Shown: in pieces, positions 959 through 36,462 of the stretch
Layout: every line of letters begins with the position of its first letter
How positions within the stretch are numbered: position 1 is the first letter of the stretch
Assembly: GCA_039208735.1 (NCBI GenBank)
Contig: JBCCQY010000073.1
Span: 1-41,792, forward strand
Reading direction: 5' to 3'
DNA length: 41,792 nucleotides
From: Myxococcota bacterium
Lineage (GTDB): Bacteria; Myxococcota_A; UBA796; GCA-2862545
The notes under the pieces: model-generated
The model's input: only the letters and a program-made list of their open reading frames with translations
Databases searched by the model: none
What the model was told of the DNA's origin: nothing
Translations under genes and position numbers: made by a program

Positions 959-1507
959 ATGATGCCCCTCGCAAACCTTCAGAAGAAGCTGACTGTACCG
1001 GATGAATACATCACGGAGCGCGACGTTAAGCAGATGATTGGTAAGCTCGATCTGTCGAACGACGAGGACCGCAAAGTCGCACGGGACTGGTTTCTAGATC
1101 GGGGCAAAGCCGCTAATGCGAAGCTCGTTGGTCGGCACCAAAGCTTGTCCTTTCACTTCGGGGATTACCTGTTTCGCATCAAGGCTCATCTAACGCGGCC
1201 GCAGGAGGACGCCCTACTGGGCACTCTGCTCGGTGAGCGGCCCTGGACGAGCTTGCCAAAACACCTTCGAGAATTTGTGGTGCGGCTACTCCAGGCGCAG
1301 GGTCACCACGCCGCGGTGGCCGGGGCGACGAACCCGCAGACAGGCCGTAAGATCCAAGCCCTTACGGTCGACGGGCGACCTGTCACGCCGAGGCGCGCCA
1401 AGGTCCCTTGGCTGCCTGGAGACGCCGACATCGCCAAGTGGAAGCGCCAACAGCGAGAGAAGCTCGCCGAAGGCATGCCGGCGCGGCGCCCATTGGTGGA
1501 GGTCTGA
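959..1507 (+). CDS. Hypothetical phage protein, 182 aa
   Basis: GGAGG RBS, protein-like composition, stop overlaps the next start (TGATG). Confidence 0.75.
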   Translation: MMPLANLQKKLTVPDEYITERDVKQMIGKLDLSNDEDRKVARDWFLDRGKAANAKLVGRHQSLSFHFGDYLFRIKAHLTRPQEDALLGTLLGERPWTSLPKHLREFVVRLLQAQGHHAAVAGATNPQTGRKIQALTVDGRPVTPRRAKVPWLPGDADIAKWKRQQREKLAEGMPARRPLVEV

Positions 1508-1794
1508 TGGGTAACCTGCGCATCCGGGCGTTCTTCGCCTGGTACGATATGTGGGTGGGCGCATACATCGACCGCGTCAATCGTCGCATCTATGTCTGCC
1601 CGCTGCCGTGCTGCGTTTTCGTATTCGAGCGCCGCTCCGTGTTGGATCAACTCCCGCTTGTCCACGGTCGGTGCGAGTTTGCGCCGTCCTACACGGCCTG
1701 CGGCAGGCCAAGAGGTCGATGCGAGGTCGCCGTCGAGCGTCGCCTCGTGACGTGCCCCGCCTGTTTGGAAGAGATTCCGATGGTGGAGGCATGA
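1507..1794 (+). CDS. Hypothetical phage protein, Cys-rich C-terminus (MGNLRIRAFFAWYDMWVGAYID...TACG...VTCPAC)
   Basis: ATG at 1507 overlaps the upstream TGA and its own stop overlaps the next ATG. Confidence 0.7.
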   Translation: MGNLRIRAFFAWYDMWVGAYIDRVNRRIYVCPLPCCVFVFERRSVLDQLPLVHGRCEFAPSYTACGRPRGRCEVAVERRLVTCPACLEEIPMVEA

Positions 1795-2123
1795 TGGAAA
1801 ATCCCCTGTTCGCGATTCCGGAATCGAAAGCACCGTTGTGCGAGCGCTGCGGGCTCCATCCATCGGAGGAGCACGGACGACCCGGCCCGCCGTCCTACCG
1901 CCCCGATGCGGAAGGCGGCCTTCTGAGCACGTGGCAGACCGCGTGCCTCTGCACGAAGTGCTGGGACCGCCTGTGGTCGGCCTACGAGAGGCGGCAGCAC
2001 GACCCCAAGGTGCGTGACCGACTTGAGCGGTTGCGGGCTTGGAGGGTCGGGGAACTCATCGGGTTCCGGGAACCGCGCAAGCAACTGGCGCTTCCGGGCG
2101 CCGACACACAGATGGAGGGATGA
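1791..2123 (+). CDS. Hypothetical phage protein with two CxxC pairs (CERC, CTKC), possible Zn finger
   Basis: GGAGG RBS, ATGA overlaps at both ends. Confidence 0.7.
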   Translation: MMENPLFAIPESKAPLCERCGLHPSEEHGRPGPPSYRPDAEGGLLSTWQTACLCTKCWDRLWSAYERRQHDPKVRDRLERLRAWRVGELIGFREPRKQLALPGADTQMEG

Positions 2124-2350
2124 TGAGAAGGAGGTTGGAAGTTCGACCAAACCCCCGGCCAGACATGATTGAGGTCCGCGCCTGTCGCGGCGGCTCTGTA
2201 GGTATCACTCTGCTTAACTACATCGGTCGAAACCTCGAATACTTGACGCCGACCCAGGCTCGTGACTTGGCTGCGCTTCTCATCAACGCAGCCAAAGAAG
2301 CCGAAGAAGCTGCCAAAACCACCTGCGCCCCAGGCGTGACGGAGGGGTGA
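2120..2350 (+). CDS. Hypothetical phage protein, 76 aa
   Basis: GGAGG RBS and ATGA coupling; MMRRRLEVRPNPRPD...LTPTQARDLAALLINAA. Confidence 0.7.
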   Translation: MMRRRLEVRPNPRPDMIEVRACRGGSVGITLLNYIGRNLEYLTPTQARDLAALLINAAKEAEEAAKTTCAPGVTEG

Positions 2351-2628
2351 TGCACTTTGCCGCCTTCGCCCACGAGCCTCGGCACTCCGACTACACCGGC
2401 GAGCCGACTGCGACCTGGACGGTGCGGGGAGGCCCCGCAATCGGGGAAACCTTCGTGGTCGACGAACAGATGCGGTGGATCTACCGCGTGGTTGGCCGAG
2501 AGCATGCCGTCCAAACGCGCAACCCCGGCGATCAGCTTGAGGAAGCGCTCCAGGCCGTGTGGGAGGCAGGGTACCTCGCTGCGGTCGCAGACCCGGCCAA
2601 CGGTGGGCCGCCCGATGCGTCCGACTGA
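2347..2628 (+). CDS. Hypothetical phage protein
   Basis: GGAGG RBS and GTGATG coupling with the upstream stop; start is 2347 or 2350. Confidence 0.65.
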   Translation: MMHFAAFAHEPRHSDYTGEPTATWTVRGGPAIGETFVVDEQMRWIYRVVGREHAVQTRNPGDQLEEALQAVWEAGYLAAVADPANGGPPDASD

Positions 2629-2720
2629 TGGACCAGCTGGCCCTCGCAGCGCTGCTCCTGTTGCTCGTCGGGGCGTGGGTCTGGGCGCTGCTCACACACA
2701 AACCCGACCGAGGTGAATGA
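2628..2720 (+). CDS. 30-aa single-transmembrane miniprotein (MDQLALAALLLLLVGAWVWALLTHKPDRGE)
   Basis: Manual translation, below the ORF track cutoff. Fills the gap exactly, with TGATG overlap at the 5' end and ATGA overlap at the 3' end. Confidence 0.7.
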   Translation: MDQLALAALLLLLVGAWVWALLTHKPDRGE

Positions 2721-2932
2721 TGGTAGCAAAGCCCGAAATTGATCGCGCATCCCCACCCATGTGGCTCCCCGTCGAGCGGGTTTGGGTCGGTGGCGTCGAG
2801 GTGCAGGGCATCCGGTTCCGCGATGGGGCGGAGACCGAGACGACGTGGGTGGTTTGGGAGGACGGATGGGGGCGGTCGCTCCTGCGGGACGTAGACGTCG
2901 AACAGTTTGAGGGGCGCAATGAAGAGCGATGA
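2717..2932 (+). CDS. Hypothetical phage protein, 71 aa
   Basis: GAGGTG RBS, ATGA coupling, overlaps the next gene. Confidence 0.65.
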   Translation: MMVAKPEIDRASPPMWLPVERVWVGGVEVQGIRFRDGAETETTWVVWEDGWGRSLLRDVDVEQFEGRNEER

Positions 2933-3329
2933 GCAACCGCTCACGCATCGTGAGGTGCGTGAGCTGATGAAGATCAAGGCGGACGCACTACGGGCGCTCA
3001 TGGCTGACACGCCAGAGGGCGCGCGTCGGCCTTGGCGGAACATCGGATCCCCTCGTCGGCCACGATATCGCTGGTTTGGCGGGGTAAAGGCGATCGTAGG
3101 CTGGCTGGATGAGGTGCAGGAATGGCGAGCTACACGAAGCGAGGCGAAGGCTGGTCGATCCGCTGGCGGGACCCCGACGGGACGAGCCGGCGTAGGCAAG
3201 TCCCGGACGCCCGGACGCGCGACACGCTCCTCCGCGAAATCGACGCGGCGCACGCCCTCGGACGGCGATGGGAGCCCGCAGCGGTCGGAGTCGACCACAG
3301 CATGGCTGCTGCGGCAGTCGGATACCTAA
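2919..3329 (+). CDS. Putative excisionase-like HTH protein
   Basis: Basic N-terminal domain (PLTHREVRELMKIKADALRALM...RRPRYRW) immediately upstream of and overlapping the integrase, the usual xis position. Confidence 0.55.
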   Translation: MKSDEQPLTHREVRELMKIKADALRALMADTPEGARRPWRNIGSPRRPRYRWFGGVKAIVGWLDEVQEWRATRSEAKAGRSAGGTPTGRAGVGKSRTPGRATRSSAKSTRRTPSDGDGSPQRSESTTAWLLRQSDT

Positions 3330-4222
3330 GGGCTGTCCGACGCCGACTCAGGCCTCGCACCGTCGAGTCCCAGGCGCGTACCATCGCAGACTTCCTCGAC
3401 TGGGTGGGCGCCCGGATCCGACGGCAGCACGTCGGGGTCGATGTCCTGTCGCGCAAGCTTATGCTCGCCCACTACGACGACATGGTGGACCGAGGGCTAG
3501 CCTTGTCCACGGCAAAGGTGAGGATTTCGCACCTGCGCCAGTTTTGGGCCTGGTGCCACGACGATGAGGACTTCGGTGAGCATACGCCGCGCCCGCGAAA
3601 GATCGACGTAGCCTCCCCCACGCCACGCGAGACGATTGCGCCGACATGGGAGCAGATGGACGCCATGATCATGGCGCTTTCTCTCGTGCACTACCAGCGC
3701 CTTGCCACGGTCTTACGGTGTACGGGGCTGCGCAAGGTACAGGCCATGGGCCTGCGGTGGTCGGACATCGACCTCGATCGGGGCACGCTCTATGTTCGCC
3801 CCGAGCTTGGCAAGACCCGCCAGGAGCGATCCGGACGCGTCGTCCCATTGCCCCCGGTCTTGCTCGACGAGATCGCCTCGTGGGGGCAGCGCCGCGGATG
3901 GCTCATCGATTGGCCCACGGAGGCGCGAAAGCCGCATAGCGGTACCATCGAGCATGCGTGGCGGCTGGCGGGCGTCGATGAGCGGGTGTGGAGGCAGCGA
4001 ACCGTCCACTGCCTGCGCAAGGGCCATGCGTCGGGTCTCCGCGAGCTTGGCGCCAACCACTTCGCCGTCGAGTATCTGCAGGGTCGGACCATGGGTGTCG
4101 CTGGGACATACACGGATCCTCGCGCGCTGCCGCTTGCGGAGGCCGTGGCTCTCGTTCCCCCGATCGGGGGGGATCGCGAAGCTGCGGATCGGATCCCGAT
4201 CCTGCGTTCGGTTGAGGCATGA
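3122..4222 (+). CDS. Tyrosine recombinase/integrase
   Basis: Arm-binding-like N-terminus (GWSIRWRDPDG), TGLR...LRWSDID (catalytic R), GKTR (K), HCLR (HxxR), terminal GTY (Y). Confidence 0.92.
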   Translation: MASYTKRGEGWSIRWRDPDGTSRRRQVPDARTRDTLLREIDAAHALGRRWEPAAVGVDHSMAAAAVGYLRAVRRRLRPRTVESQARTIADFLDWVGARIRRQHVGVDVLSRKLMLAHYDDMVDRGLALSTAKVRISHLRQFWAWCHDDEDFGEHTPRPRKIDVASPTPRETIAPTWEQMDAMIMALSLVHYQRLATVLRCTGLRKVQAMGLRWSDIDLDRGTLYVRPELGKTRQERSGRVVPLPPVLLDEIASWGQRRGWLIDWPTEARKPHSGTIEHAWRLAGVDERVWRQRTVHCLRKGHASGLRELGANHFAVEYLQGRTMGVAGTYTDPRALPLAEAVALVPPIGGDREAADRIPILRSVEA

Positions 4223-5346: not shown

Positions 5347-8300
5347 ATGCGTGACGACCTGATTGCAATCGTGGGCGTCGGGGTTCGATTGCCCGGCGGC
5401 GCCACAGACCGAACCAGCACCTGGCAACGTTTCCGGGAAGGCACCGACGCCATTGGGCCTGTCCCGCCCGGTCGATGGGCGCTCGAAGCGCGGACCACGT
5501 CGCGAGGCGTCGCCGTCCCCACCGACGGGGGCTTCCTGTCGGGCATCGATGCGTTCGAGCCAGAGGTCTTTGGCATTTCGCCTCGCGAGGCCACTGCGAT
5601 GGACCCGCAGCAGCGACTCTTGCTCGAGGTCGCCTGGGAGGCCTTCGAAGACGCGGGCCAGTCCCCGCTGGGCCAAGCACGTTCGCGAACCGGTGTCTAC
5701 GTCGGCATGGGATTGGTTGATTGGTCAAGGCGAACCTTTGGGTCCGGCGACACCCAACGCCTTGACGCCCACTCGGGCACGGGCGCGTTTGCCAGCGTCG
5801 CGGCGGGGCGCGTCAGCTATGTGCTCGGCCTCAATGGCCCGGCTCTGGCGGTCCAGACGGCGTGTAGTTCGACGCTGGTAGCGATTCACCTTGCGGTTCG
5901 AGCGTTGCGGGAGGGGTCGTGCGACCAGGCCCTGGCTGGTGGCGTCAACCTGCTGCTCTCGCCAGACCCTACGACCTACTTTGCCGAACTGGGAGCGCTG
6001 TCACCCACCGGGCGCTGTCGCACGTTCGACCACGAGGCCGATGGCTACGTGCGTAGCGAAGGGGCCGGGCTGTTCCTTTTGAAGCCTCTGTCGCGTGCGC
6101 AGGCTGACGGTGACCGCATCCTCGCCGTCATTCATGGGTCTGCGATCAACCACGACGGTCGTAGCAACGGCCTCACAGCGCCGAGCGGGCGAGCGCAACA
6201 GGCCGTCATCCAAGCGGCGCTTGCCGATGCAGAATGCGCGCCCGACGAGGTCGTCTGGATCGAGGCTCACGGCACGGGCACTCCGCTGGGTGACCCGATC
6301 GAGATGGCCGCGTTGCAAGCAGTCTTTCACTCCCGAAAACGGCCGCTCTACGTCTCGTCAGCCAAGACGATCATGGGCCATGGTGAAGCCGCGGCGGGTG
6401 TTGCTTCGTTGCTCCGCACCATGGGGGTGCTGAAGCACCGGGTCACCGCTCCACACCTGCATTTTACGCGTCTCAATCCGCGCATTCAGGAGGTGGAAGG
6501 GTTCGTGGTGCCCACGGCCGCTAACCCCTGGACCGACGGCGGTCTGGCGGGCATTAGCGGCTTTGGCCTGTCGGGTACGAATGCTCACCTCATCGTCGGA
6601 CCTCCTCCCGAGCGTGCCTGGAAGGGGGCAACGGGAGCCACGTTGCTCGCCGTTGGTGCGCAGTCCGAACCTGCCTTGCGAGCCCGATGGACTCAGCTGC
6701 GGGGTCTCGTTCAGCGAGGGGATGCTGAACTCGCGAGAGTGGGTCGGGCGGCCACGCTCGCCCAGTCAGCCCACCGCGTTCGCGTTGCCATGGTGGTGGA
6801 CGATGCGGAGTCGCTGCCCGAGACCGTGCAAGGGGTCAAACCCGAGGCCGACCCACCCCTTGTGTTCGCCTACACCGGCCAGGGAAGCCAAAACCCTGGC
6901 ATGGGGCGGGCGCTTTACGAGGGGTTCGCGGTTTACCGTGAGGCGCTCGATGCGGTCGAGGCCATCCACCAGGAGTGTACCGGCGAATCGTTGATCGAGG
7001 TCATTCATGGCGACGATGCAGATCGTCTCCGCGACACGAAGTACACCCAGCCCGCCATCGTGGCCGTGGGCTACGCGCTGACCCAGTGGTGGGCATCGCT
7101 CGGGGTTGTGCCCGACGCGGTCCTTGGCCACAGCGTAGGGGAAATCACGGCCGCCTTGACGGCTGGCGTCTTCTCGCTCGAAGACGCCATGGGCTTCGCG
7201 ATTGCGCGGGGGCGCGCCATGTCTGCGTTGCCCGAAGGCGGCGCCATGGTGGCCATTCGGGCCGATGCGGCTCGCGTCGAAGACGTCATCGAGGGGCTTG
7301 GGCATCCCGCCGATCTTGGCATTGCGGCGTTCAATAGTTCAGAAGAGACGGTCGTATCGGGTCGAGAGTCCGACATCGACACGTTGGTGGCCCGTCTTGA
7401 CGCTGACGACATCGAAGCCCGCAAGCTTCTGGTGTCGCATGCGTTCCACTCGCCGCTCATGCAGCCCGTGATTGAGGAACTGAAGGCCTACCTCGAAGGA
7501 CTCACCCTCCATCCGCCCCGACTGGACTTCTTCAGTGCGTTGGCGCGAGCAGAGCGTGAAGGCGAGGCCGAGTGGAGCCTTGCTTCGACGGAACACTGGA
7601 CGCGGCACATCCTTGAGCCGGTGCACTTCGCCGACGCGGTTCGAGCGGCGGCAGAGGCCGACTACGATGTGTTCGTTGAGGTGGGTCCCAAACGGGTCCT
7701 CGCGATTCACGGCGGTCGCGTGGTTCCTGGCGCGACCTGGCTTGGCGCGCTGCACCCCCATCAGCCCGATCGCGTACGGGTGCTCGACACGGTGGCGGCC
7801 CTGCTTCGACAGGGGGTGCACGCCGACCTACGACAGCTCTATACCGACGTCGAACCCGCCGACCTGCCGCCCTATCCGTTCCAGCGACAGTCGTTTTGGT
7901 TGCCGGAATTGGCCGGGCATGCTCGCGAAGGGGCGGCGGTACCGCGCTACCGCTACGCATGGGAACGGTCTACGCCCAATCCCGTGCCGGCGCTCGATGC
8001 TGAGCGCTGGATTGTGGTCGGTAACCCCGAAGGCATCGGGGCCATGCTTCAGCGGCAGCTCGACGACATCGGCCATTCCGCATCCTGCACGCCGGCATTG
8101 CCCGATGAGGCCGGTCCGTTCCAGGTGCTGGCGTTCGTAACCGAGCCTTTGCCGGAATCTGAGGGACTGAACCAACGGATTGCGAGCCAAACCACCGCAA
8201 TGAGGTTGGTGTTGACCGCCGTGCGAGGGTTCCTCGCCGACGCTCGGGTGGCCCGGCTCTGGGTGGTGCGCAGAGGCAAGGCCAACGATCTGTTTGCGGC

Positions 8301-11300
8301 CACCTTGGCCGGCTTGGGGGCGACCCTTGCCATCGAGGAGCCGGAGCGCTTTGCAGGCGTCATCCGCCTCGCACCCCGCCTCACGCCTGAAACGGCCACT
8401 TCCGAGCTGTTGGCCGCCATTCAAGCTGAGGACGGAGAGGATTTGGTCGTCGTGGGGCGGTCGGGCCGCTCCGTACCGCGGTTGGTGCCCGCGTTGGCGC
8501 AGAATCCTCTCCTTCCGCACCTCGACCCCGATGCACGCTACATCGTGTCCGGCGGACTGGGGGCCCTTGGTCTGCTCATCGCGAGTCAGCTCGTCGATTT
8601 GGGAGCGCGGCATCTCGTGCTCCTCACGCGCAGTGGTCCTCCATCGTCGGGCGATCATCCGGTGTCGGTAGCCCTGGCGAACCTCCGTGACCGCGGGGCT
8701 CGCATTCAGACGCCGAAAGCAGACGTGGCCGACCCAGAGGCCATGCTGCTGGCCCTCGAGATGGGGACCGGACCCATCAAGGGCGTGGTCCACGCGGCGG
8801 GCTTTGCCAGTGTGGGTCCCTTCATCGAGTTGACCGATGACGAGATGATGGGGCCCGTACGGACCAAGCTTGTGGGAGCCGAGGTGCTCGCATCCCTTAC
8901 GACCCGAGAGCCTCTCGACTTCTTTCTCTTGATCAGCTCGGTGTCTGCCATCTGGGGCAGTCAAGGAATTTCAAGCTATGGCGCAGCGAATCGCGCAATT
9001 CATGCGTTTGCGCGGCGTCGGCGCAAACAGGGGCGTCCGGCAACTGCGCTGGCGTTAGGCCCGCTTGCCCTGGGTGGCATCGCCAAGCCCGAAGATCTGG
9101 TCGAACTGGCTCGCATGGGCCTGCGTCCGATTGGCAACGAGGTACTGCTGGCCGCCATTGTGGGCGCTTTGCACCGTCAGGCCGAACCGGAGCTGATCGT
9201 CGCCGACGTGGATTGGAACACGCTCGCGCCGGTCCTCGAGGCCCGCCGTCCTCGTCCCCTCCTCGACCGCGTCCGTCCGCTCAAGGCGGCTCCTTCGGCG
9301 GCCGCCGAAGGGTGGTTGGGGCAATTGCAAGAGGCACCGGCCGAGCTTCGGCGATCGTTGCTCGTACGCCAGTTGTCGGCCTTGGTGAGTCAGGTGTTGG
9401 GATTCGATGGTCCGGTCGATCCAGGCGTCGGCTTCTTTGAGCTGGGCCTCGATTCGCTGTTGGCTGTCGACCTCGCCGATCGATTGCGGGCGACGACCGG
9501 ACTTGTGGTTCCGCCGACCGTGGCCTTTGACCATCCCACCGTGCATGCATTGGCACGACACGTCTTGGCCGAACTCGGCCTTTCGACCCACGCAGAGACC
9601 GCCGCGACGGCGCTCGTTGAAGACGAGCCCATTGCGATCGTCGGGTTCGCGTTGCGGTTTCCGGGGGCGTCCTCTCCCGAGGAGTTCTGGGCACTCTTGT
9701 CGCGAGGTGAAGACGCGGTCGGCCCCTCGCCGGCGTGGCGGTTCGGCGATGAACACCGACCTGTCGGAGGGTGGCTGGACGAGATTCGGGACTTCGACCC
9801 AGCTCGGTTTGCGATGTCGCCTTCAGAGGCGGCCGCCCTCGACCCCCAACAACGGCTGCTCCTCGAGGTTGCCACCGACGCCCTCGAACATGCAGGCCTT
9901 GCCCCAACCCGGCTCGAGGGTGCACCTGGAGCGGTATTCGTCGGTATTGGGCGTTCGGAGTATTGGTCGCGGCTTGACCCTCAGCGACCCGATGTGGAAC
10001 CCATCCACGCCTGGTCTGGAACGGGCAACGAAACCAGCTTTGCGGCTGGGCGACTGGCGTGGCATTTGGGCTGGTCAGGCCCTGCGTTGGCCGTCAACAC
10101 AGCCTGCAGCTCCTCGTTGGTGGCGGTCCACCTCGCTGCCCGGGCCTTGGCGAGGGGTGAGGCATCCATCGCTCTCGCAGGCGGCGTCCATGTACGCCTT
10201 GACGCCGATGCGGACCGCTACCTCGAACAGATCGGGGCCTTGTCGAAGTCCGGGCGGTGCCGGCCGTTCGATGCACGAGCCGACGGGTACGTTCGAGGCG
10301 AAGGGTGCGGCGTCGTTGTTCTGAAGCGCATCTCAGATGCCACCCGCGACGGGGACCGCATTTGGGGGGTGATCGCAGGTTCTGCGGTGGGTCACGATGG
10401 CCACAGCTCTGGGCTCACGGTGCCGAATGGGACGGCCCAGCAAGCAGTTTTGCGGCAGGCTCTCAGAGCGGCAGAGCTGGCGCCAGGCGACGTAGGGGTG
10501 CTCGAGGCGCATGGCACGGGGACCTCCCTTGGAGATCCCATCGAAATCGGCGCCGTCCAGTCGGTCTATACGGCTTCTCGGGGTCAGCCGCTGTTTGTGG
10601 GTTCCGTAAAAAGCCAGATTGGGCACCTTGAAACTGCGGCGGGGGTGGCCTCGCTTATCAAAATGGTGCTGGCTCTTCACCACCAACGGGTGCCGGGCAC
10701 GCTGCACCTCGAGCGCGTGAACCCTGCGCTGCCCACCGATGAGATGCTCCGCTTTCCCAAGCGACTGCAGCCTTGGCCGAAGGGAGCGCCCGCAGCTGCG
10801 GTCAGCAGCTTCGGGTTGTCAGGGACGAACGCCCATCTTGTGATCACGCCGCCCCCCAGCACGGTGGGCGACCCTCTTCCGGGTCTACCCGTTCAGCTCC
10901 TCACCCTGTCCGCGCATCACGAACAGGCGCTCGAAGAGGTCCGTCGGGATGTGCGGGCGGCCCTCAAGCACCACCCGCCGCGGGACGTCGCGTCGATGCT
11001 GACGTACGGCCGTGCAGGGGGGCGACATCGGGTGGCCGTCGTCGGCTCCGATGCAGCCGAACTTCGCCGGCGCCTCGTTCAGCCCGAATGGAAAGGTGAA
11101 GTCGACCCCGCGCGCACCCTGCGGGTGGGATTTCTCATCACGGGTCAAGGCAGTCAACGGCGGGCGATGGCCGCGGGTCTCGCAAAGTCCGACCGTCTCT
11201 TTCGGCAAACGCTGGAAGAGGCCCTTCAGGCGTTGCCGGCCGAACGCATGAGTCCCGATGATCTTCGTTCGGTCTTGCTCGAAGACGACCCTCGCATTGA

Positions 11301-14300
11301 CGACACGCGGTTCACGCAGCCCGCCTTGACCGCCTTCGCGTGGGCGCTCGCCGACCGTCTCGGGGATTGGGGCATCCGCCCTGAGGCGGTGGTGGGCCAT
11401 TCGGTCGGAGAGATTCCCGCCGCAGTGATCGCGGGCTCGCTGACCATCGGGGAGGCGTTGGGGTTGGCCTGCGCTCGGGGCGAGGCCATGGCGCAGTTGT
11501 CCGAAGGGGGTGCCATGGCGGCGGCTACGCTGCCTGTCGACGCATTGCGGGCGCTGGTTGAAGAGCGCCCTTCGTTGGCCATCGCCGCGATCAATGCGCC
11601 TGATGAGACCGTCTTCGCAGGCGCTGTGAGCGAGGTCGAAGCACTCTTGGTGACGTTGGAAGGCAAAGGTGTTCGAACGCGCCGGCTCGACGTGGCTCAC
11701 GCGTTCCACAGTGCGCTGGTGGAGCCTTCGCTGCGTGTCATCGCCGAGGCCAGCCCGACGGGGCGTGAAGCCTCGATCACCTGGATCAGCAGCACGACTG
11801 GGCGTCCCATCGCACGGCCTGATGCGAACCACTGGGTGCGACACGCCCGTTCTCCCGTCGACTTCGTTCGCGCTGTCGGTGCTCTCGCGGATCGGGTCGA
11901 CGTCATGGTCGAACTCGGTCCTACCCCCGTGCTTACCGGGTTGGCGGCCCGCATCGCCCCGAGCCACGTGACGGTGCCCGCGTTGCGGCACACAGACCAT
12001 CCCGTTTCGTCGTTGCTCGAACTGGCCGCTGAACTTTGGATTCGCGGGCAGCCGTTGCGCCCCGAGGGGTGGTTGCCCCGACGTCTCCCCATCGACCTCC
12101 CACCGACGCCATCGGTGCGCACGCGGTGTTGGGTTCCCGAACTCACCAACGGCCTGCCTTCTCCGGTCTCGGCCGTGACCTACGCCTGGGACTGGGCGGT
12201 GGTTTCCGAACCGGACCATGTGCTGGTAGGCAGGTTCGTGATTGTCACCGCGGAGCCCGATGGAACCGGGGTCGAAATCGCCGCACAACTCCGTTCGGCC
12301 AACCTCGAGGTCGTGGTGGTGGCTCCGTCTGAGCCCCTGCCACCGTGTGACCATGTGTTGCTCGTGCTGGTTGCTGATTCCACCCTGCATCAGCCCCAGG
12401 ACGCGGTGGTCGCCGGAGTGGCGTGGTTGAGGGCGCAATTGGCGGAGCGGACGCGCCCCCGGGTGTGGTGGATCACCCGAGGGGGCGTGGGCATCGGAGC
12501 CGACGACATTGTGGAGGTGTCGCAGGCTGCGGTTTGGGGTGCGGTACCCAGCATTGCCCTCGAACATCCCGCATTCGCCCATACGCTGGTCGATCTTGAC
12601 CCGGCCGATGAGGGCATCGGACTGGTGGAGGCGTTGCGAACGGGAGAGCGCCGAGTGGCGATTCGCGCAGGTGAGCCCTACCGGGTGCGATTGCGTCCGA
12701 CCGCACCCCTCGTCGCTCCGTCCCTCGACCCAGACGGCGCCTACCTCGTCACGGGTGGGGCGGGGGCGGTCGGGCGCGGGATTGTGAAGTTTCTCTTCGA
12801 CCAAGGGGTGGGGCACGTCTGGATATTCAGTCGGCGGCCACCGGAAGCCAAAGCCACGGCGGATTGGCCCGCTGACGGCTGGACGCATCTACCGGTCGAC
12901 TTGGGCGATGTAGAATCCGTTCGGGATGGCCTGACCGAAGTGCGAGCCGGTGGGCATCGTTTGGCCGGCGTCTTTCACGCGGCGGGCGCCCAACGCGATG
13001 TCCTGGTTCGTGACACGGCCACCAACGACTTCGAGGAGGCGTTTGCCGCCAAGGTACGGGGGGCTTTGGTGCTGCATCCGTTGCTCCACGACGTCGACCA
13101 CATGGTGTTTGTGTCGTCCGCGGTGGGGTGGCTGGGACTCGAGGGACAAGCTGCCTACGGTGCGGCCAATGCCGCGCTCGATGCGATTGCCGCCTCACGT
13201 CGGTCGCGAGGGCTTCCCGGCGTCAGCGTTGCCTTCGGACCCTGGAACGTGGGCATGGCTGCGGGTACCGACTTCGAGGCTCTTGGAATGCCTCCGCTCG
13301 AGACACCTTCGGCCACCCATGCCATGCACCTCGCGATGGATGGCCCGTCCAATGTGGCGGTCTTGCAGGCGGACTTCGGGGTGTTGTCGCGACGCTATCC
13401 CGATGGTGCGCCGGCGATTCTCGCCGATCTGCCCGGGGTTGAGTCTGGGCCGGTCGGGGCCAATGACGTGTCCAGCTGGGTCCGCACGTTGCGGCGGTCC
13501 AGCCCTTCGAGTCGGTCAAGCTGGCTCCAACAACAGCTTCGAGCGTTGGTGGCGGAGGTTCGTGGTGAGGAACTCCCCGACTCGTTTTCGGTGACCACCG
13601 GATTCGTCGAAGCGGGACTCGATTCGTTGATGGCGGTGGAGCTGGTCCGACGGATTTCGCGCCAAGTCGACCGTCCGCTACCTGCGACCGTCGCCTTCGA
13701 TCACCCCGACCTCGAGTCGCTGACGGCGTTCGTCCTCCGCACGCTGGAACTCGACGAACCTCCACCCGTCGTGCCGGTTGCCGCCCCGAAAGCGCCGGCG
13801 GTGCCTTCAGCCGACGAGCCCATCGCGATCGTTGGCATGGCGTGCCGATTCCCTGGCGCGTCGACGCCCGATGCCCTTTGGGACCTGCTCAAGCGGGGCG
13901 ACCAGCCGATTGTCGAGGTGCCAACGGATCGCTGGGATGTCGATGCCTGGTATGACCCCGACGCCCGAGGTGCGCTCGACCGGGCGTATGTGCGCAGCGG
14001 CGGGTTCATTTCCGACATCGATCAGTTCGACCCAGAGTTCTTTGGAATCTCGCCTCGCGAAGCTGACGCGCTGGATCCACAGCAACGGTTGTTGCTCGAA
14101 GTGGCGCACGAGGCCCTCGAGCGAGCGGGTCATGCCAACAAGCGGCTGCGCCATAGCCGCACCGGCGTCTTCGTCGGCATCGAGGATCGCCACTATCTCG
14201 AGCGCTTCACCCAGCCCGGACGCCCTCGCTACCCCGACGCGTGGGCCGGCATGGGGTCTGACGCAAGCTTTGCGGCCGGTCGGGTTGCCCACGCTCTGGG

Positions 14301-17300
14301 ACTCGAAGGGCCCGCCATCTCCGTCAACACGACGTGCAGCTCCTCGCTGGTTGCCGTGCATCTTGCACGTCAGGCGCTACTTCGGGGCGAGTGCGACCGC
14401 GCGGTAGCGGGTGGGGTCGCGCTCATGATGTTGCCCGACGACACCGCCTACTTGTGTGCAATCGGGGCACTGTCGCCCACCGAGCGGTGCCACACCTTCG
14501 ACGCGGCCGCCGATGGCTACGTCCGGTCCGAAGGCTGTGGAACCGTGGTGCTCCGGCGCCTCTCCGACGCAATGGCGGCAGGCGATCCCATCCTTGCGGT
14601 GATTGCCGGGTCGGCGGTGAACCATGACGGGCCTAGCGCGGGCCTTACCGTGCCGAACGGGGCCGCTCAGGCCGACGTCATTCGGGCGGCTCTCGCACAG
14701 GTAGCGGCGTCGCCCGGAGACCTTGGATTCATCGAGACCCACGGCACGGGCACGCCGTTGGGCGACCCGATTGAGGTCCATGCGATCCAGACGGTCCTTG
14801 GCGAACGAGGGAGCCGGCCCGACGTGGTGCTCGGCGCGGTCAAGGCTCACCTAGGGCATCTCGAACTCGCGGCCGGTGCGGCCTCGCTGATCAAGGCGGT
14901 CTTGGTCCTACAGCACCAACAGATTCCTGCTCAGCCGTTGCGTGAGTTGAACCCCGAGATCGACTCTCGAGGCATTGCGATCCCTACTCAGATGGTGCCT
15001 TGGCCTGCCAACACGCGTCTCGCGGGGGTCAGTGGTTTCGGGCTGTCGGGCACCAACGCCCACGTGTTGCTCGAACGGGGCCCCGCTGTCCGAACGCCGA
15101 CGTCCACCGCGGATCGTCCGGTGCATCTCCTCGCGTTGTCCGCGACGAGCGACGTAGCGCTGCAGGCGACGATCGACGGACTGCCCGCCGATGCGCCATT
15201 GGACGGGATTGCGCACGCCCTCCATCGGCGCGGGCCCTATCCACTGCGGGTTGCCGTGGTGGCATCCGACGTCGCCGAGGCACGAGAGGCGTTGGCGTCC
15301 GCGACGCCCCGAAGGGCCAACGCGGCCCCTGGGGTGGCGTTCCTCTTTTCGGGACAGGGCAGCCAAGTGGCGGGCGCCGCCAATGCGCTGGCGCGGGTGT
15401 GGCCGAGTTTTGACGACCACCTCATCCGTTGTGCGAAGGTGCTCGACCCACTGCTGAAACGGCCGCTGCGAGACGTGCTCGATGACCAGGCGGCATTAGG
15501 CCTCACCCAATTCACGCAGCCTGCGTTGCTCGCGGTCCAGACGGGAATGGCGTCGCTGCTCGAGCACTTTGGCGTCACCCCCACCGTCGTGTTGGGGCAC
15601 TCGCTCGGGGAGTTGACCGCAGCCACGGTGGCGGGGGTTTTCGACCTCGATGATGCCTTGCGCCTCGTCGCCAAGCGTGGCCGGTTGATGGCCGAGCAAG
15701 CTGCGGAAGGTTCGATGGCTGCGGTCTTTGCGTCGCCCGAAGCCGCGCGGCCTCACCTTGAGCCTGGGGTCGAGCTGGCCGCGGTCAATGGGCCCGAGGA
15801 GATTGCGGTGGCGGGCCCGCCCGAGCCGATGGCGCGCTCGGTCGCGGCGCTCGAAGCAGCCGGGTTTGAGGTTCGCCGTTTGAACACCTCGCGACCCTTT
15901 CACTCGGCTGCGGTCGATCCGGTGCTCGACGCCTGGACCCAGGCAGTCCATGAGGTTCCTCGACATGCGCCACGCATCGACGTTGTGAGCCTGCTGACGG
16001 GTCGCGTCGAGCGAGCGTCGCTTCAGGACGGCGACTTTTGGCGTCGCCACGCCCGTCAGCCGGTTCAGGCCCTCGAGGGCCTGCAGACGCTCGCTCAGCT
16101 GCCCGTTGGCTGGGCGGTCGATGTAGGGGGGCGACCCGTGCTGGCGGGCCTCGCCAGTCGGGTGCGGGCGCTCGATGAGGTAGGTCGGTCCTCTACGCAC
16201 GACGACGATGCGGTGCGCGGAGTCGTCCGTAGCGTGGCCGATGCTTTCATCGCAGGCGTCGACGTCGATTTTGCTGCCTGGGATGCCCCGTTTTCTCCTC
16301 CTCGAGTTTCCGTTCCGACCTACCCCTTCGCACGTCGTCGGCATTGGCTTGCAGAGCCCAAACGTGCGATCGACGAGTGGACGTACGGACTGTCCTGGAC
16401 GACGGTTGAAGCCGACGGCGAGTTGCCCCCACAGCTGACCCTCCTCGGCGAGGAAGCGTCGGGGGTGGTGGTGGGGTCCCTGCGCAAGGCAGGAGTCGCC
16501 ATTCGCACCCTCGAAGCCGAAGCGGGGACGACGCAAGGGCCGATTCTCGACCTTCGTTTTGTTGACGAGAAGCCCCTTGGCGATGTCATCGAGGCGATTT
16601 TGTCGACGTGGACGAACCGCGACGCGGAAGACCCTGACCCTTACTGGATTGTGACCACAGCCGCGTTGGCCGGTCCATCGGATCGACCTCCCGAGATGGG
16701 GGTTGTCGCCCAGGCTCACGCCATTCACAGCCTGATCGAAGCCCTCCGGGTCGAGTCACCTCGCGACATTCGGGCCATCGATGTGACGGCCCTTGACGGC
16801 GTACCCACAGCACTTCGGATGCGTGGGTCGGTGCTGGCAACCAACGGCGAGGTCGTGAAGGGCCGACGCCTCGAGCGAGTCCAATTGCCCGTTCGAGAAC
16901 CCGTCCTGCGGAGCGGATGGTGGTGGATCACCGGGGGGCTGGGGGCCCTTGGGCGCTCCGTTGCCGAGTGGCTCGCCGATCGTGGCATTCAAAGGATCGT
17001 ATTGACCGCTCGAACGCCCTTGCCCGAAGCGGAGACCTTGGCGGCGGTGGCCGATCCCGAAGCACGAGAGCGCATCGCAGGCGTGTTGGCGCTCCGAGAG
17101 CGTGGTGTGGAGGTGGTCGTTGAAGCCGTCGACGCAGCCGACGAGTCCGCAATGGCTGAACTCTGGAGTGAACGACCACCCGCGGGAATCGTGCATGTGG
17201 CGGGGGTCACGCTGCCTCAGGCGGCCGAGCACATGAGCCGCAGCGACATTGACGTCATCCTCGCAGGCAAAGCTCGTGGTGCACAGGTATTGACCCGCCT

Positions 17301-18183
17301 TGCCGCAGACCGCGAAGATCTCCCGATCCTCTTCTTTTCGTCGGTCGCCGCGACGTGGGGAAGCCGGGATCTGTCGGCGTATGCGGCAGCCAATGGCTAC
17401 CTCGATGGGCTTGCAACCTACCTTCGCCAGGCGGGTCGACCCGTCTCGAGCATCGCATGGGGCCCTTGGGGAGGCGGTGGCATGGTGGATGCTGGCCGGG
17501 CAGAGGTCCTGGGTCGAGCGGGGCTACAGTTGCTGGCGCCCGCGGAGGGACTCACCGCGCTGGGAGCCGTCCTGGCTGCGGGTCGGGCACTCACGCTGGT
17601 TGCACGTGTCCAATGGCGCACACTGCAGCCTGCGCTGTCAATGCACGGCCCACGACCCTTGTTCGACCTCATCGTGGACGAAAAAACTCGCCCCGAAGTA
17701 CCGGAGGCTCCAGATTCCTTATCGGCTTCGCCCCCTGCGGCCGCCGGGTCGCCGCCGACCGACCCTGACTTGCGGTGGTCGGCGTTGCCCGTTGCAGAAC
17801 GGGAACCGGAGGTGCGGCAGCATCTCGAGGGTGCGGTCCGCAAGGTGCTGCACCTCGAGGCGTCGCGGCCCCTGGCCCATGATGAGCCGATCGGGCGACT
17901 TGGGTTCGATTCGTTGATGGCGACCGAGCTAAAATCAAGCCTGAAGGCCGATGGACTCGAGGTGCCGCTCGGTCGACTCCTCGGTGGTCCCAGTCTTGAT
18001 GAGTTGGTGGTGATGGTGATGGCTCGATTCACACCTTCAGACTCGCTCGAAGAATCCGCTTCCTCTGTGGTAGATACGGCGAAAGATGGCCCCTCCCTGG
18101 TGTTCTGGAGTCACCTGACCGTGTTCATTTTGGGGCTTGCTATTGCGTTTGGCGTGTCCGCTTGGATTTGGGGGCCTCAATGA
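5347..18183 (+). CDS. Trimodular cis-AT type I polyketide synthase, [KS-AT-KR-ACP]x3, with C-terminal hydrophobic tail
   Basis: KS sites QTACSS, NTACSS, NTTCSS with HGTGT and GH motifs; AT GHSVG, GHSVG, GHSLG; KR GGLGALG, GGAGAVG, GGLGALG with YxAAN; ACP GLDS, GLDS, GFDS. No DH, ER or TE motifs seen. Confidence 0.96.
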
Positions 18184-18284
18184 CGACATTCACAGTCCGT
18201 GAATCATGATTTCGCAGATCGTGAACGGCAATCTGGTCCAGGAAGGACCGAGGTCATACCGGCGTCAGCGGAGATACCGCCGGG

Positions 18285-19037
18285 ATGCCCGTTCGCTACA
18301 GCGGCAATGACTACCGTGAATTTCTACGTGCGTTGCTCAAGGACCGAGGGCTTCTCCAGCGTGACCTCGCAGAGCGAATGGACCGTTCGCCCGCCTGGGC
18401 AAGCCAGATCTTGAACGGGCGCCGGCGGCTTCAGCGTGAACTTGCCGAACGCATCGCCGATGTGTTGCTCCTCGACGATGCGGAGCGGTGGGACCTTCTG
18501 CACCTCGTTGACCTCAGCGCTTCTCCGTCTCCTGCGATCCAGCGTCGGATGCCGCCTGCCGATCCCCACGGGATGCCGCTGGACCGTTGGTACGTCGACG
18601 CGATTCGCGAACTCATGCGGTGCGAAGACGTTCAATCTGAGCCCGCCTGGATTGCCGCCGCCCTTCGGCCCCGCATCTCGGAAGAAGAAGCCCGTGAAGC
18701 CCTTCAGGCCCTTCAGGAACGCAATCTGCTCGATGACGCGCCGTCCCCTCGCCGGGGGATTCGCTCCACGGATCGGCAGGCCACCCAAGTCCTTCAGTTG
18801 GCCTTGGATTCCCTGCTATCGACTCCGCCAAACGTTCGTCGGCATCTCACGGGAAGTGTCGCGATGTCCGAAGAGACCTACCAGCAGTTTCTCACCGCAT
18901 TGCAGGCGCTCCTCACCACGCTCCTTCAATCTCCCGCTTCGACAGAGACGCCGAATCGGGTGTACCAGGTGAGCCTGGCCGTGTTCCCAGTCAGCCTCTA
19001 CACAGACTCAGCAGCACATCCGAGCGACGTCGAGTAG
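18285..19037 (+). CDS. HTH (XRE-like) plus TIGR02147/DUF4423-like protein
   Basis: N-terminal HTH (LQRDLAERMDRSPAWASQILNGRR), WYVDAIRELM...WIAAALRPRIS, C-terminal VYQVSLAVFP. Confidence 0.75.
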   Translation: MPVRYSGNDYREFLRALLKDRGLLQRDLAERMDRSPAWASQILNGRRRLQRELAERIADVLLLDDAERWDLLHLVDLSASPSPAIQRRMPPADPHGMPLDRWYVDAIRELMRCEDVQSEPAWIAAALRPRISEEEAREALQALQERNLLDDAPSPRRGIRSTDRQATQVLQLALDSLLSTPPNVRRHLTGSVAMSEETYQQFLTALQALLTTLLQSPASTETPNRVYQVSLAVFPVSLYTDSAAHPSDVE

Positions 19038-19038
19038 G

Positions 19039-21462
19039 TCACTCGAGCGTGACCGTGATGCGCCATTGCGTGCCTTCGACGGGGTGCTCGGCGGGTCCTT
19101 CTTCCAGCCTTTCGGCGCGCGTCGCGGCAAGCAGTGTCGGGTGAAGGTCTCCCAACGGGCGGGGCGCTTCGACCACGAGACGTGCCAGGGGGCGCGACTG
19201 CGGAAACCGAGCCTGAGTGCGGGCGGTCCGGACGGCTCGGAGCACCGCCCACACGGCGGCCATCTCTGGAACTTCGGGATGACCGGCTGGCATGGGAAAT
19301 CGGGTTGTGTGCAGGGTCAAGCCACCCTCGCGTTCGCGGTAGCGCCGTTGCCAGATCGAATCGGTCACGAACGGCAGGTAAGGGGCGTACAGCGCAAGGA
19401 TGGTGCGAAGCGCCTCGTCGCACGTGGCTTGGGCCGATGCGGCACTTCCGGGCGCAAAGCGATCTGCTTGGTAGACTCTCGTTTTGATGGTTTCGAGCCA
19501 ATCATCGCAGAAACGACCGAAGAAAAACCGATCGAGAGCCGCCAAGCCTCGTGCGTAGTCGTACGCTTCGAAACCTGCGTTGGTCGTGGCGATGACCTGG
19601 TCGAGGTGGTGCAGGAGATCTCGATCCTCGGGGGGCCGGTCTCCGAGAGGAGGTGGCGTTTCTGGCAGGCCGAGCTGATCCGCCAGACGGGCCGCATTCC
19701 AGAGCTTCACCACGGATCGTCGGCCCGCTTTGACGTCGCGTTCAGCGAACCGCAGATCGTGGCCCAGCTGGCTCTTGGCGGCCCAGTGACGCAGGGCGTC
19801 GGCTCCGTAGCGCTCGATGAGGTGGGCTGGATTGTAGCGGTTGAAGCCATCTGCATCGGACTTCGCGAGGTTGCGCTTGCTGATCTTCTTGCCCTGTTCG
19901 TCGAGCCCCCACCCTGAAATCATCACGTCTTGCCAAGGCAATGCCTCATCGCCATGATGCAGCGTGGTTTTGACGAGGGTGTAGAACAGCCAGGTGCGAA
20001 TGATCTCGTGGGCTTGCACGCGAACGGTGAGCGGCAACTCCGTCGAGCGGCGTCCCTCGCTCTGGGCCCAATTCGTATGGATTTGGGGCGTCATCGACGA
20101 CGTCATCCACGTGTCGAGGACGTCGGGATCGCCAGTCAACGCGCCTCCGCATTCGGGACATGCCTCGCAGGGCGGAGCATCCTCAAGTGGATCAATTGGA
20201 AGATCCTCGATTCTTGCCAGCATTGGAGTTCCGCAATCGGTGCAGAACCACGCCGGAATGGGAACCCCGTAGAACCGCTGCCGCGAGAGGCTCCAGTTCC
20301 AAGCCAGCCCATCGATCCAGTGGTCGAGCCGGGCCTTCATGTGAGCTGGGAACCAGCGAAGTCGGGCGGCGGCGTTCCGGAAACGGTCTTCGTGGCCGAG
20401 TAGCTGCAGCGACCATTGGGGGACCACCTGCCACTCTACGGCGGCGTCGGTCCGCTCGGCTCGTGGCACCTGTTGCGGCAGCATCGTGAATCCGTCGGAC
20501 AGGCCAGCCGCCGTGAGCTTCCGCACCACGCCCGCACGCGCCTCATCCACCGTACGTCCTGCGAGGTCCCTAGCGAGTTCGGTCATGCGCCCATCGGGCC
20601 CGATGGCCAGCCGGAGAGGGAGTTCGTCGCGGCGCCACCGACGGACATCCTCGGCGTCCCCAAACGTGCTGGTCATGAGCAGACCCGTTCCCAGATCGCG
20701 GTCTACGGCCTGGTCGAGGAGGACCGGCACGCGGCGGTCCGAGAGCGGTACGCAAGCCTCGGTGAGTTCGGCGTAGCGGGGATCGTCGGGGTGTCGATGC
20801 AAGGCGACGCAGGCGAACAGAAGTTCGGGGCGGGTTGTGGCGATGTCGTACCCTTGGCCCTCAGGCGTCGTGAATCGGATCCGGTGGAGCTTCTGGCGTC
20901 TGGACATGGTGATCACGTCCGCCTGGGCGAGGGCGCATTGCGCCACGGGGTCCCACATCACCGGCGCTTCGTCGCGAACGATGTGGCCTTGTTGGGCAAG
21001 TTCGACGAAGGAGCGCTGGGCGGTTCGCCGACTGTGCGCATCGATGGTCGAATAGCGGAGTGACCAATCCACAGACAGGCCCAACGAGCGCCACAGCGTC
21101 TCGTAGATGGCCGCCCCGCGTTGGGTCTCTGCAAGGCAAAGGGCGCGGAATTCCGATCGACGAATGGTGGACTTGTCGATCTTGTGGGCCGCCTCAACGT
21201 AACGTTCCGTGGGAAGGCCATTGTCGTCGAAACCCATGGGGTAGTACACCCGTTCGCCACGCATGCGACGCCAGCGCACCACGATTTCGGCTTGGGTGTA
21301 GGACATGGCGTGGCCCACGTGTAGGTGAGCAGCAGATACGTAGGGGGGAGGCGTATCGACGGCGAACACGGGTCCCTCGCCGTGGGGGTCGAAGGCATAC
21401 ACGTCGTGGTCAGACCACAACCGCTGCAAGGACGGCTCTTCCGTCCGGTGATCGAAGCTCAT
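19039..21462 (-). CDS. valS: Valyl-tRNA synthetase, type 2 (archaeal-like, no C-terminal coiled-coil arm)
   Basis: DTPPPYVS...LHVGH, GFDDNGLPTE, ATTRPEL editing motif, WSLSRQRFYGVPIP, DVLDTWMTSS, QAHEIIRTW; KMSKS appears as KISKR. Confidence 0.92.
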   Translation of the reverse strand: MSFDHRTEEPSLQRLWSDHDVYAFDPHGEGPVFAVDTPPPYVSAAHLHVGHAMSYTQAEIVVRWRRMRGERVYYPMGFDDNGLPTERYVEAAHKIDKSTIRRSEFRALCLAETQRGAAIYETLWRSLGLSVDWSLRYSTIDAHSRRTAQRSFVELAQQGHIVRDEAPVMWDPVAQCALAQADVITMSRRQKLHRIRFTTPEGQGYDIATTRPELLFACVALHRHPDDPRYAELTEACVPLSDRRVPVLLDQAVDRDLGTGLLMTSTFGDAEDVRRWRRDELPLRLAIGPDGRMTELARDLAGRTVDEARAGVVRKLTAAGLSDGFTMLPQQVPRAERTDAAVEWQVVPQWSLQLLGHEDRFRNAAARLRWFPAHMKARLDHWIDGLAWNWSLSRQRFYGVPIPAWFCTDCGTPMLARIEDLPIDPLEDAPPCEACPECGGALTGDPDVLDTWMTSSMTPQIHTNWAQSEGRRSTELPLTVRVQAHEIIRTWLFYTLVKTTLHHGDEALPWQDVMISGWGLDEQGKKISKRNLAKSDADGFNRYNPAHLIERYGADALRHWAAKSQLGHDLRFAERDVKAGRRSVVKLWNAARLADQLGLPETPPPLGDRPPEDRDLLHHLDQVIATTNAGFEAYDYARGLAALDRFFFGRFCDDWLETIKTRVYQADRFAPGSAASAQATCDEALRTILALYAPYLPFVTDSIWQRRYREREGGLTLHTTRFPMPAGHPEVPEMAAVWAVLRAVRTARTQARFPQSRPLARLVVEAPRPLGDLHPTLLAATRAERLEEGPAEHPVEGTQWRITVTLE

Positions 21463-31127: not shown

Positions 31128-31214
31128 GGTGGGAACCTCACTTCCGCTACCCTACGCCGAATGACGTGGGCCGTAGGTGGAGTTCCCCGGTAACGACGTG
31201 GCGCCCTGGGCGCT

Positions 31215-36451: not shown

Positions 36452-36462
36452 TTCCGAGGATC

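Follow-up and report, generated by a model that had tools for sequence, protein, structure and literature searches.

In the Dlt system, as far as the available portions of the sources go, DltC docks on the cytoplasmic face of DltB, with its arm reaching the active histidine (PMC11035591), and the acyl group is relayed from the tyrosine of an FxYxxF motif to the serine of an SGNH protein and from there to the polymer (PMC12148441, PMC11035591). In other systems that combine MBOAT and SGNH proteins, the shuttle motif resides on the MBOAT itself, and these systems are said, in the accessible part of PMC12148441, to lack a carrier protein and to use acyl-CoA. The stretch of Myxococcota DNA analyzed here (the window) is a whole contig (C73; 41,792 bases) of a 9.4-Mb, 288-contig genome, denoted G000. 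A single open reading frame (ORF) at 5347-18183 on the plus strand, with no internal stop codon, encodes a 4,278-residue polyketide synthase (PKS), hereafter PKS-A, that ends in a hydrophobic helix. We consider it fairly probable, at roughly 60%, that this tail keeps the last acyl carrier protein domain (ACP3) at the inner membrane, making it an integral donor in the manner of DltC, from which a trihydroxyacyl chain would pass to the histidine and tyrosine of an MBOAT protein, then to the serine of an SGNH protein and, finally, to an extracytoplasmic glycan. The pairing of PKS-A with the MBOAT and SGNH proteins is drawn from genomic evidence.

The C-terminal helix and its conservation

PKS-A closes with LVFWSH...WIWGPQ and the stop codon (residues 4251-4278; nucleotides 18097-18180), a 28-residue end that contains no Asp, Glu, Lys or Arg and one His. 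The best 19-residue window of this tail has a Kyte-Doolittle value of 2.12, the next best window anywhere in the protein reaching 1.68, and it alone among the top ten windows has a negative summed score (-0.94) on an insertion scale whose values were taken as general knowledge and applied independently of position. The AlphaFold2 model, built from a 39-row alignment, shows the ACP helices, a linker with pLDDT of about 58, and one unbroken helix at residues 4249-4275 with pLDDT 90-98. By hydropathy and this model, PKS-A has the build of a tail-anchored protein, with a lone hydrophobic helix at the extreme C-terminus and no N-terminal signal, and this helix is predicted to fix ACP3 to the inner membrane. 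The first, sequence-only reading of this DNA had described a trimodular PKS without thioesterase (TE), reductase or condensation domain, in which ACP3 (GFDS) is followed by a Ser/acidic linker and an uncharged tail. The translated ORF has the same order, and the Pfam content agrees (three KS, three AT, three KR and three PP-binding domains, with no DH, ER, TE, condensation or reductase family). The proposal built on that description, a tail-anchored assembly line without a release domain, gains support from conservation, hydropathy and the structure model, and holds as a prediction.

The sequence-only reading also left room for homologs that run on past the stop codon. Instead, 11 homologs finish with W[ST]H and the helix, and therefore, the tail is not a truncation artifact. 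A truncation, frameshift or assembly error at the stop was excluded, given that the homologs stop at the same position and that a Logan contig from run X1, possibly the source sample and hence not independent, covers 13431-19500 with 0 differences. Among the sequencing runs listed as containing this DNA, none is of RNA.

The tailed PKSs of the family comprise subfamilies A, B (with a B-like form in genus g10), C and D. Subfamily A is trimodular and stops straight after the helix, forming a 13-row clade with SH support of 99 in a quick tree; B is trimodular, with a charged extension after the helix; C is an AT-less single module; and D is a single module with two or three ACPs. Kyte-Doolittle scoring over the last 45 residues finds a hydrophobic end (at least 1.8) in 12 of the 120 listed homolog matches, the query included, and W[ST]H is present in each; the remaining 108 listed homologs score at most 1.55, one of them (P0050) having a B-like helix further inward. 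The NCBI labels of the homologs include 'Myxococcales bacterium' for P0071, 'Myxococcota bacterium' for two fragments and Alphaproteobacteria for one other, so that the naming of the lineage depends on the labels given by the sources. A profile of ACP plus tail matches 30 of the 49 family genomes and the tail itself is seen in 29, the match in G058 being ACP only. Within the tail, 37 of 39 aligned A/B-type sequences retain the histidine that is His4256 in PKS-A.

Such a tail, scored as a Kyte-Doolittle value of at least 1.6 within the last 45 residues, is carried by none of 48 terminal ACPs from other lineages, a control set (80 loci, 85 ORFs examined) reused from a contig scan with the ACP-plus-tail alignment that returned generic ACP motif matches only and no family member. 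Among the 233 proteins of at least 1,000 residues called in genome G000 by a codon model made for this analysis, a lone C-terminal hydrophobic segment occurs in three: PKS-A, PKS-B and PKS-C. A tail-motif regular expression run over the same genome found no other tailed protein; it missed the query too, and is uninformative. Beyond the family, matches occur in 3 of 105 genomes of the order and in 1 of 133 of the class, with no tail in those viewed, and an Atlas search with ACP3 and the tail gave generic ACP clusters only. In a 50%-representative library, 32 of the 105 terminal-ACP proteins among 145 new matches have a tail.

Four of these 32 tails (P0191, P0198, P0152 and P0184) are of a different type, in proteins of 4.7-5.5 thousand residues that look algal; these PKSs, too, end in ACP, linker and hydrophobic helix, and the two that were read begin with AMP-binding, ACP and KS domains, which suggests an independent origin of tail-anchored PKSs. 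Other tailed PKSs (P0149, P0246, P0236 and the one on contig C123 of G000) have lost individual AT (or KR) domains and retained the tail, implying acylation in trans from neighboring modules. In several genera, PKS-B adjoins a cytochrome c maturation-like operon (L033, L184, L186, L191), a housekeeping-type position.

Candidate partner families and paralogue pairing

The neighborhoods of the relatives yielded four recurring families, each of which was then sought across all 49 family genomes. The MBOAT clade ending in FxYFQF is present in 33 genomes (at E 1e-110 or better), including all 29 with a tailed PKS, and an N-terminally anchored SGNH family occupies the identical 33 genomes. A FAAL-ACP didomain protein (recognized by Pfam and NCBIfam) is found in 29 genomes at E<1e-130, a cut set after the fact with the next match at 6e-118, and in 27 of the 29 tailed-PKS genomes; a type II TE (TEII; PF00975) is found in 30 and in 28, respectively. 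In 16 of the 49 genomes, none of the five components, that is, the tailed PKS and the four partners, was detected. G041 and G057, both incomplete metagenome-assembled genomes (MAGs), have all four partners and no tail match, and genus g20 has MBOAT and SGNH alone. In G023, where no tailed PKS was found, MBOAT and SGNH genes lie beside FkbH and two free ACPs, likely another phosphopantetheinyl donor; on the contigs of G044, no donor was seen. The G023 locus (G023:C2; L331:11386-18001 and L332:1-9909) and a metagenome counterpart (L445) combine FkbH, two free ACPs, three methyltransferases, MBOAT and three or four SGNH-type genes, and are likely a glyceryl-ACP-fed version of the same transmembrane acylation system.

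The MBOAT encoded at G000:C17:80248-81660 has its histidine in GFWHG and ends in DFVYFQF; it aligns with DltB, and H322, F465, Y467, F468 and F470 are invariant in 43 rows, so that both hallmarks of an MBOAT-SGNH system, the catalytic His and the C-terminal FxYxxF shuttle, are in place. The membrane-anchored partner likewise has its Ser and His: Gly73, Ser75 and His322 are invariant in 15 rows of the SGNH family (G-x-S and the His of D-x-H). The SGNH protein is modeled as an N-terminal helix, an alpha/beta domain and then beta-sandwiches, with the SGNH acetyl-mannan esterase 6HFZ as the top Foldseek match, at a low TM-score (0.17/0.32), and LB_356 (0.84) and DltD (0.78) as Atlas leads; the family has no Pfam match, and a PDB sequence search with its alignment also came back empty. 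This is not the Dlt pathway proper: the MBOAT reaches 150 bits, the cut-off for DltB being 375, and no D-Ala ligase or carrier was seen in the MBOAT-linked loci.

Gene order in the relatives connects these families. SGNH, MBOAT and FAAL-ACP genes adjoin one another in the same orientation in G041, G008 and G006; a single gene separates them in G046 and G017, and the grouping is looser in G005 and G047. FAAL-ACP lies beside the TEII gene in five genomes, directly in G050, G048 and G013 and across one TPR gene in G000 and G001. At six loci (in G013, G048 and G050, and at G000:C123, G009:C3 and G051:C87), the distance between an MBOAT gene and a tailed PKS is 3-8 kb. Of 80 MBOAT loci from metagenomes, one has MBOAT with FAAL-ACP (L403), one has MBOAT beside the start of a PKS (L399) and one has MBOAT, ACP and FkbH (L445), and about a quarter have an adjacent SGNH-like gene.

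The paralogues suggest particular partners for PKS-A. Genome G000 encodes three tailed PKSs, three in-clade MBOATs (on C17, C74 and C123) and three SGNH proteins (C13, C44 and C123), along with one TE and one such FAAL-ACP. MBOAT-ii, the C17 type, forms a 16-row clade with SH support of 100 in a quick tree and is present in all 15 genomes with an A-type tail (the G024 copy is cut by a contig end); the C13-type SGNH is present in 14 of the 15, and both are absent from genomes in which the PKSs are solely of the g10 or D type. Among genomes holding every set, pairwise distances of PKS-A correlate better with MBOAT-ii than with MBOAT-i (0.66 vs 0.40; 11 genomes), the converse being the case for PKS-B (0.75 with MBOAT-i vs 0.49 with MBOAT-ii), and the sign of this preference is kept in 11 of 11 jackknifes. 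For the SGNH proteins (10 genomes), PKS-A prefers the C13 type (0.76 vs 0.47) and PKS-B the C44 type (0.92 vs 0.75). The trees of PKS-B, MBOAT-i and FAAL-ACP have in common an odd grouping of G000/G001 with G051/G055, and the C44-type SGNH groups G000/G001 with G051 (G055 is not in that set); the trees of PKS-A, MBOAT-ii and the C13-type SGNH are free of it.

Two further families lie close to these genes. Two tandem membrane-anchored sulfatase/phosphodiesterase-fold genes sit together beside MBOAT-i or its SGNH at G000:C44:21745-24863 (L205) and in L029, L169, L171 and L283, and may build or modify the acceptor. A single-pass coiled-coil family of about 300 residues is encoded directly downstream of the g10 tailed PKS (L029:11207-12154) and near MBOAT-ii on one metagenome contig (L389), and has four paralogues in genome G000 (G000:C129:18064-18987, and on C26, C28 and C6).

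Domain organization, starter unit and predicted product

The features of the synthase, all on the plus strand, are as follows.

5347-18183, plus strand: PKS of subfamily A, trimodular cis-AT, three KS-AT-KR-ACP modules plus the C-terminal hydrophobic helix
5356-6606, plus strand: KS1, beginning at residue 4, with Cys-His-His intact (QTACSS, EAHGTGT, GHGE)
6856-7791, plus strand: AT1, motifs GHSVG and HAFH
8527-9081, plus strand: KR1, catalytic Tyr; W motif without LDD, which makes it A-type
9352-9576, plus strand: ACP1, GLDS
9616-13746, plus strand: module 2, with KS2 at 9616-10866 and AT2 at 11122-12051 (HAFH)
12733-13266, plus strand: KR2, without W motif and with only the second D of LDD; B-like, uncertain
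13522-13746, plus strand: ACP2
13813-17496, plus strand: catalytic domains of module 3, with KS3 at 13813-15081
15322-16236, plus strand: AT3, GHSLG and an atypical RPFH
16912-17496, plus strand: KR3, A-type W
17803-18030, plus strand: terminal ACP3, GFDSL with Ser4189, and a family-specific segment G.D[VL]P..R...GPS
18031-18090, plus strand: Ser/acidic linker of about 20 residues, not conserved, with low model confidence
18091-18171, plus strand: predicted single transmembrane helix (residues 4249-4275)

The catalytic motifs are complete (Cys/His/His in every KS, the GHSxG Ser in every AT, Tyr in every KR and the DS Ser in every ACP) and, with the repeated modules, identify PKS-A as a cis-AT modular type I PKS. 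Its N-terminus has neither a docking helix nor a loading domain, and, at its C-terminus, a TE, R or C domain or a docking helix is absent, an uncharged hydrophobic helix standing in their place.

The HAFH motif is one that we take to denote malonyl-type AT domains; in AT3, it is found in 7 of 10 orthologues, RPFH being the form in this gene and in 2 of the 10. From the motifs, PKS-A would carry out three malonyl extensions, each reduced to the hydroxyl and none dehydrated; there being no DH domain, every module would leave a hydroxyl, and the product would be a 3,5,7-trihydroxyacyl thioester. Among the orthologue rows parsed, the A-type W is present in KR1 in 10 of 10 and in KR3 in 9 of 9 (one further KR3 row was set aside, the KR2 of P0015 having been mis-numbered), and KR2 has no W and at most the second D of LDD; in the B-type paralogues, W is missing in 8 of 9 parsed KRs. 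By the W/LDD stereotype rules of PMC11228615, which in its available part grants them 'moderate accuracy' outside actinobacteria, PKS-A and PKS-B would make different stereoisomers.

The starter of this chain is less constrained. A docking-like helix follows the ACP in 22 of the 28 printed FAAL-ACP copies. In 19 of 20 genomes, its presence agrees with that of a docking helix at the N-terminus of PKS-B or of a different multimodular PKS (G054 is the mismatch, and two starts are uncertain), and no such helix is present on any of 13 A-type starts. Because of this match, its absence from A and the lack of an A-FAAL correlation (see below), FAAL-ACP appears to prime PKS-B. In genome G000, the FAAL-ACP (G000:C205), PKS-A and PKS-B all are devoid of docking helices, so that sharing of the FAAL-ACP is possible. 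The chain would be either a fatty acid extended by C6, supplied by a shared FAAL-ACP or by a fatty acid synthase ACP, or a short C8 triol if KS1 primes itself. A KASIII/TPP/PKS locus on C34 was considered as a starter source and rejected, being present in 10 of the 49 genomes with a distribution unlike that of PKS-A. Separately, G000:C22:2201-10802 (L209) encodes FAAL, ACP and a PKS ending in an AONS-like pyridoxal-phosphate aminotransferase domain, with a fatty-acid-hydroxylase-like gene nearby and a FAAL matched across the family; this is a possible sphingolipid-type pathway.

Within the window, PKS-A is flanked by phage-like genes and by genes for NudC, a class I tRNA synthetase and an HTH/DUF4423 protein. 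Of these neighbors, the latter three alone recur, in G001 only. Short phage-like ORFs occupy 959-4222, the last, a tyrosine integrase, lying just before nudC. In G001, typA adjoins nudC directly and, in G000, it starts contig C140; therefore, an integrated element probably lies between them and broke the assembly. Elsewhere, the window contains a pentapeptide-repeat protein cut by the contig end (1-748, minus strand), a region unrelated to the PKS (28398-38495) that encodes a sulfatase-like protein, a PKD/metallopeptidase whose C-terminus bears a sorting tail of myxobacterial style and a TonB-dependent receptor along with two lipoprotein-like genes, and tRNA-Ser(CGA) (40392-40480, plus strand), after which the remnant of a transposase lies close to the end of the contig.

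Release of the chain and comparison with known systems

In the scheme that we favor, transfer through an MBOAT-SGNH pair, the tail would insert N-in/C-out in the inner membrane, and some 20 residues would therefore separate ACP3 from its cytoplasmic face, ACP3 acting toward the MBOAT as DltC does toward DltB. MBOAT-ii (G000:C17) would load the trihydroxyacyl chain onto its shuttle Tyr, as co-distribution and paralogue pairing suggest, and the membrane-anchored SGNH protein (G000:C13:8834-10999), with its carbohydrate-binding-like sandwiches, would pass it to an extracytoplasmic sugar, acylating an envelope glycan. The single TEII would edit stalled chains, and the conserved, His-bearing helix might be a recognition element for MBOAT-ii. 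The odds lean slightly toward a broader version, a new way of releasing polyketide chains, in which tethered PKSs are built-in carriers for dedicated MBOAT-SGNH pairs and stereodefined polyhydroxyacyl chains pass through the inner membrane to an envelope glycan, with the PKS, MBOAT and SGNH genes duplicating together to yield several decorations per cell. The sequence-only reading had the chain handed to a membrane acceptor, be it a lipid, a glycolipid or an envelope polymer; this idea is supported and narrowed to a probable MBOAT/SGNH pair of the DltB-DltD or PatA-PatB kind that is encoded elsewhere in the genome, and because the genomic evidence points to such a pair, an extracytoplasmic glycan is a likelier acceptor than a membrane lipid on the cytoplasmic side.

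Several observations weigh against this scheme. The case for PKS-A as the donor of MBOAT-ii consists of co-distribution, the gene order of relatives and paralogue pairing, with no direct adjacency for PKS-A: no partner gene lies near it within the window, MBOAT-ii and C13-type SGNH genes normally are solitary, and the MBOAT-ii nearest to a subfamily A gene on one contig is 23 kb away (G024). The commonest direct neighbor of PKS-A is a thioesterase, not an acyltransferase (5 of the 13 A-type loci with downstream DNA), and FAAL-ACP does not track PKS-A (distance r = -0.16, 11 genomes). The trees of PKS-A, MBOAT-ii and the C13-type SGNH roughly follow the division into genera, and ordinary vertical inheritance may therefore account for their agreement; since the 49 genomes are related to one another and the positives perhaps form one clade, the co-occurrence may amount to few independent events. 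The E-value cut-offs for FAAL and MBOAT were picked after the score gap had been seen, the MBOAT and PKS trees are both quick versions, and two SGNH rows are mis-trimmed in the joint tree. Among fragmented MAGs, G003 has an A-like PKS fragment, with MBOAT-ii and the C13-type SGNH not found, G051 is without a C13-type SGNH, and G043 has MBOAT-ii and no detected PKS-A. A complex prediction of MBOAT-ii with ACP3 and the tail scored 0.00 in two runs (against a mark of 0.32) and was counted neither for nor against.

The thioesterase is a live rival for chain release, invisible to the sequence-only reading: conceivably, the tail only localizes the synthase, and the stand-alone TEII, working at the membrane, frees a 3,5,7-trihydroxy acid (or lactone) that is then exported or subsequently activated, with the MBOAT and SGNH genes co-inherited for another job. 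The PF00975 gene is directly downstream of and co-oriented with the PKS at the five loci mentioned (in G015, G022, G024, G045 and G063), and a TE is present in all but one of the tailed-PKS genomes. However, it is single-copy in most genomes, whereas PKS, MBOAT and SGNH are duplicated together, and it stands equally often beside FAAL-ACP (five genomes), as an editing TEII would. TEII release also leaves the SGNH-MBOAT-FAAL-ACP operons and the paralogue pairing unexplained, and we regard it as unlikely.

We are similarly doubtful that PKS-A is part of a longer membrane-tethered line, in which the chain comes from, or goes to, the tailed PKS B or C and the helices, substituting for docking domains, are docking elements within the membrane. 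To its credit, the A-type N-termini are devoid of docking helices even where FAAL-ACP has a C-terminal one, the FAAL helix co-varies with the N-terminal helix of PKS-B or another multimodular PKS, a B-type paralogue was seen alongside A everywhere but in the fragmented G015, A and B have the tail His in common, and D-type genomes pair a tail-less multimodular PKS with a tailed single-module one. But A and B each have their own MBOAT and SGNH clade, and therefore, two parallel exits fit better than one line; moreover, the chain could enter A through such a longer line and still leave by way of the MBOAT. Transfer on the cytoplasmic side to a lysophospholipid, a glycolipid or a lipid A precursor by an ordinary acyltransferase, comparable to mycobacterial PapA, is quite improbable. 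The design of a TE-less PKS with a trans-acting acyltransferase is established (PMC7261415, in the portion available), and a weak PF01553 acyltransferase gene is convergent to PKS-B in two related genomes (G024 and G045). That acyltransferase, however, has no homologue in genome G000 at E 1e-5 and was never seen beside an A-type gene, and the partners that do recur are an MBOAT and an SGNH of the extracytoplasmic type.

Each part of the proposed system belongs to a known class, and the combination was not found in the literature searched: full-text searches, judged by title and start of abstract, returned no transmembrane-tailed bacterial PKS and no PKS-fed MBOAT, with the main MBOAT survey and most subscription papers outside their coverage. 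If the scheme is true, it joins assembly-line polyketide synthesis with transmembrane envelope acylation, two fields that are now apart. PKS biology would gain a terminal ACP anchored in the membrane and a release route that needs no TE, R or C domain; in MBOAT biology, the range of donors would widen from acetyl-CoA and D-alanyl-DltC to polyketides, against the statement, in the accessible part of PMC12148441, that non-Dlt systems lack carrier proteins. Solitary, seemingly unfinished PKS genes in MAGs would then be parts of a dispersed, conserved pathway, and an uncultured lineage would be predicted to have a polyhydroxy-acylated surface glycan, with five proteins named for an in vitro test of the pathway idea.

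Compared with known systems, PKS-A shares the standard KS, AT, KR and ACP domains, with intact motifs, with ordinary cis-AT modular PKS subunits; however, these finish in a TE, an R domain or an acidic docking helix, and PKS-A in a hydrophobic one. The lipid PKSs of mycobacteria, loaded through FAAL and offloaded by PapA, likewise are TE-less, and, to our knowledge, no transmembrane tail is known among them. In those cases, offloading is cytoplasmic and MmpL then exports the completed lipid; in the scheme proposed here, it is the acyl group that would be carried through the membrane. The likeness to PpsA-E, Mas and Pks2-5 lies, according to the available part of PMC7261415, in envelope PKSs without a release domain, hydroxyl-leaving KS-AT-KR-ACP modules and a FAAL starter. 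PatA/PatB, AlgI/AlgJX and WssH/WssI have the same pair of proteins, an MBOAT with the catalytic His and a C-terminal FxYxxF and a separate, N-terminally anchored SGNH; here, in contrast, FAAL-ACP/PKS or FkbH/ACP donors are associated with the pair, and the SGNH has extra beta-sandwich domains. The proposed order of transfer, from an adenylating enzyme to a phosphopantetheinyl carrier, the MBOAT His and Tyr and an anchored SGNH, is that of the Dlt pathway (DltA-DltC-DltB-DltX-DltD). The differences are that the host is Gram-negative, that FxYxxF is fused to the MBOAT, with no DltX, that the cargo would be a polyketide rather than D-alanine, and that the role of carrier would fall to the terminal ACP of a modular PKS of 4,278 residues, which a helix of the same protein would anchor in the membrane.

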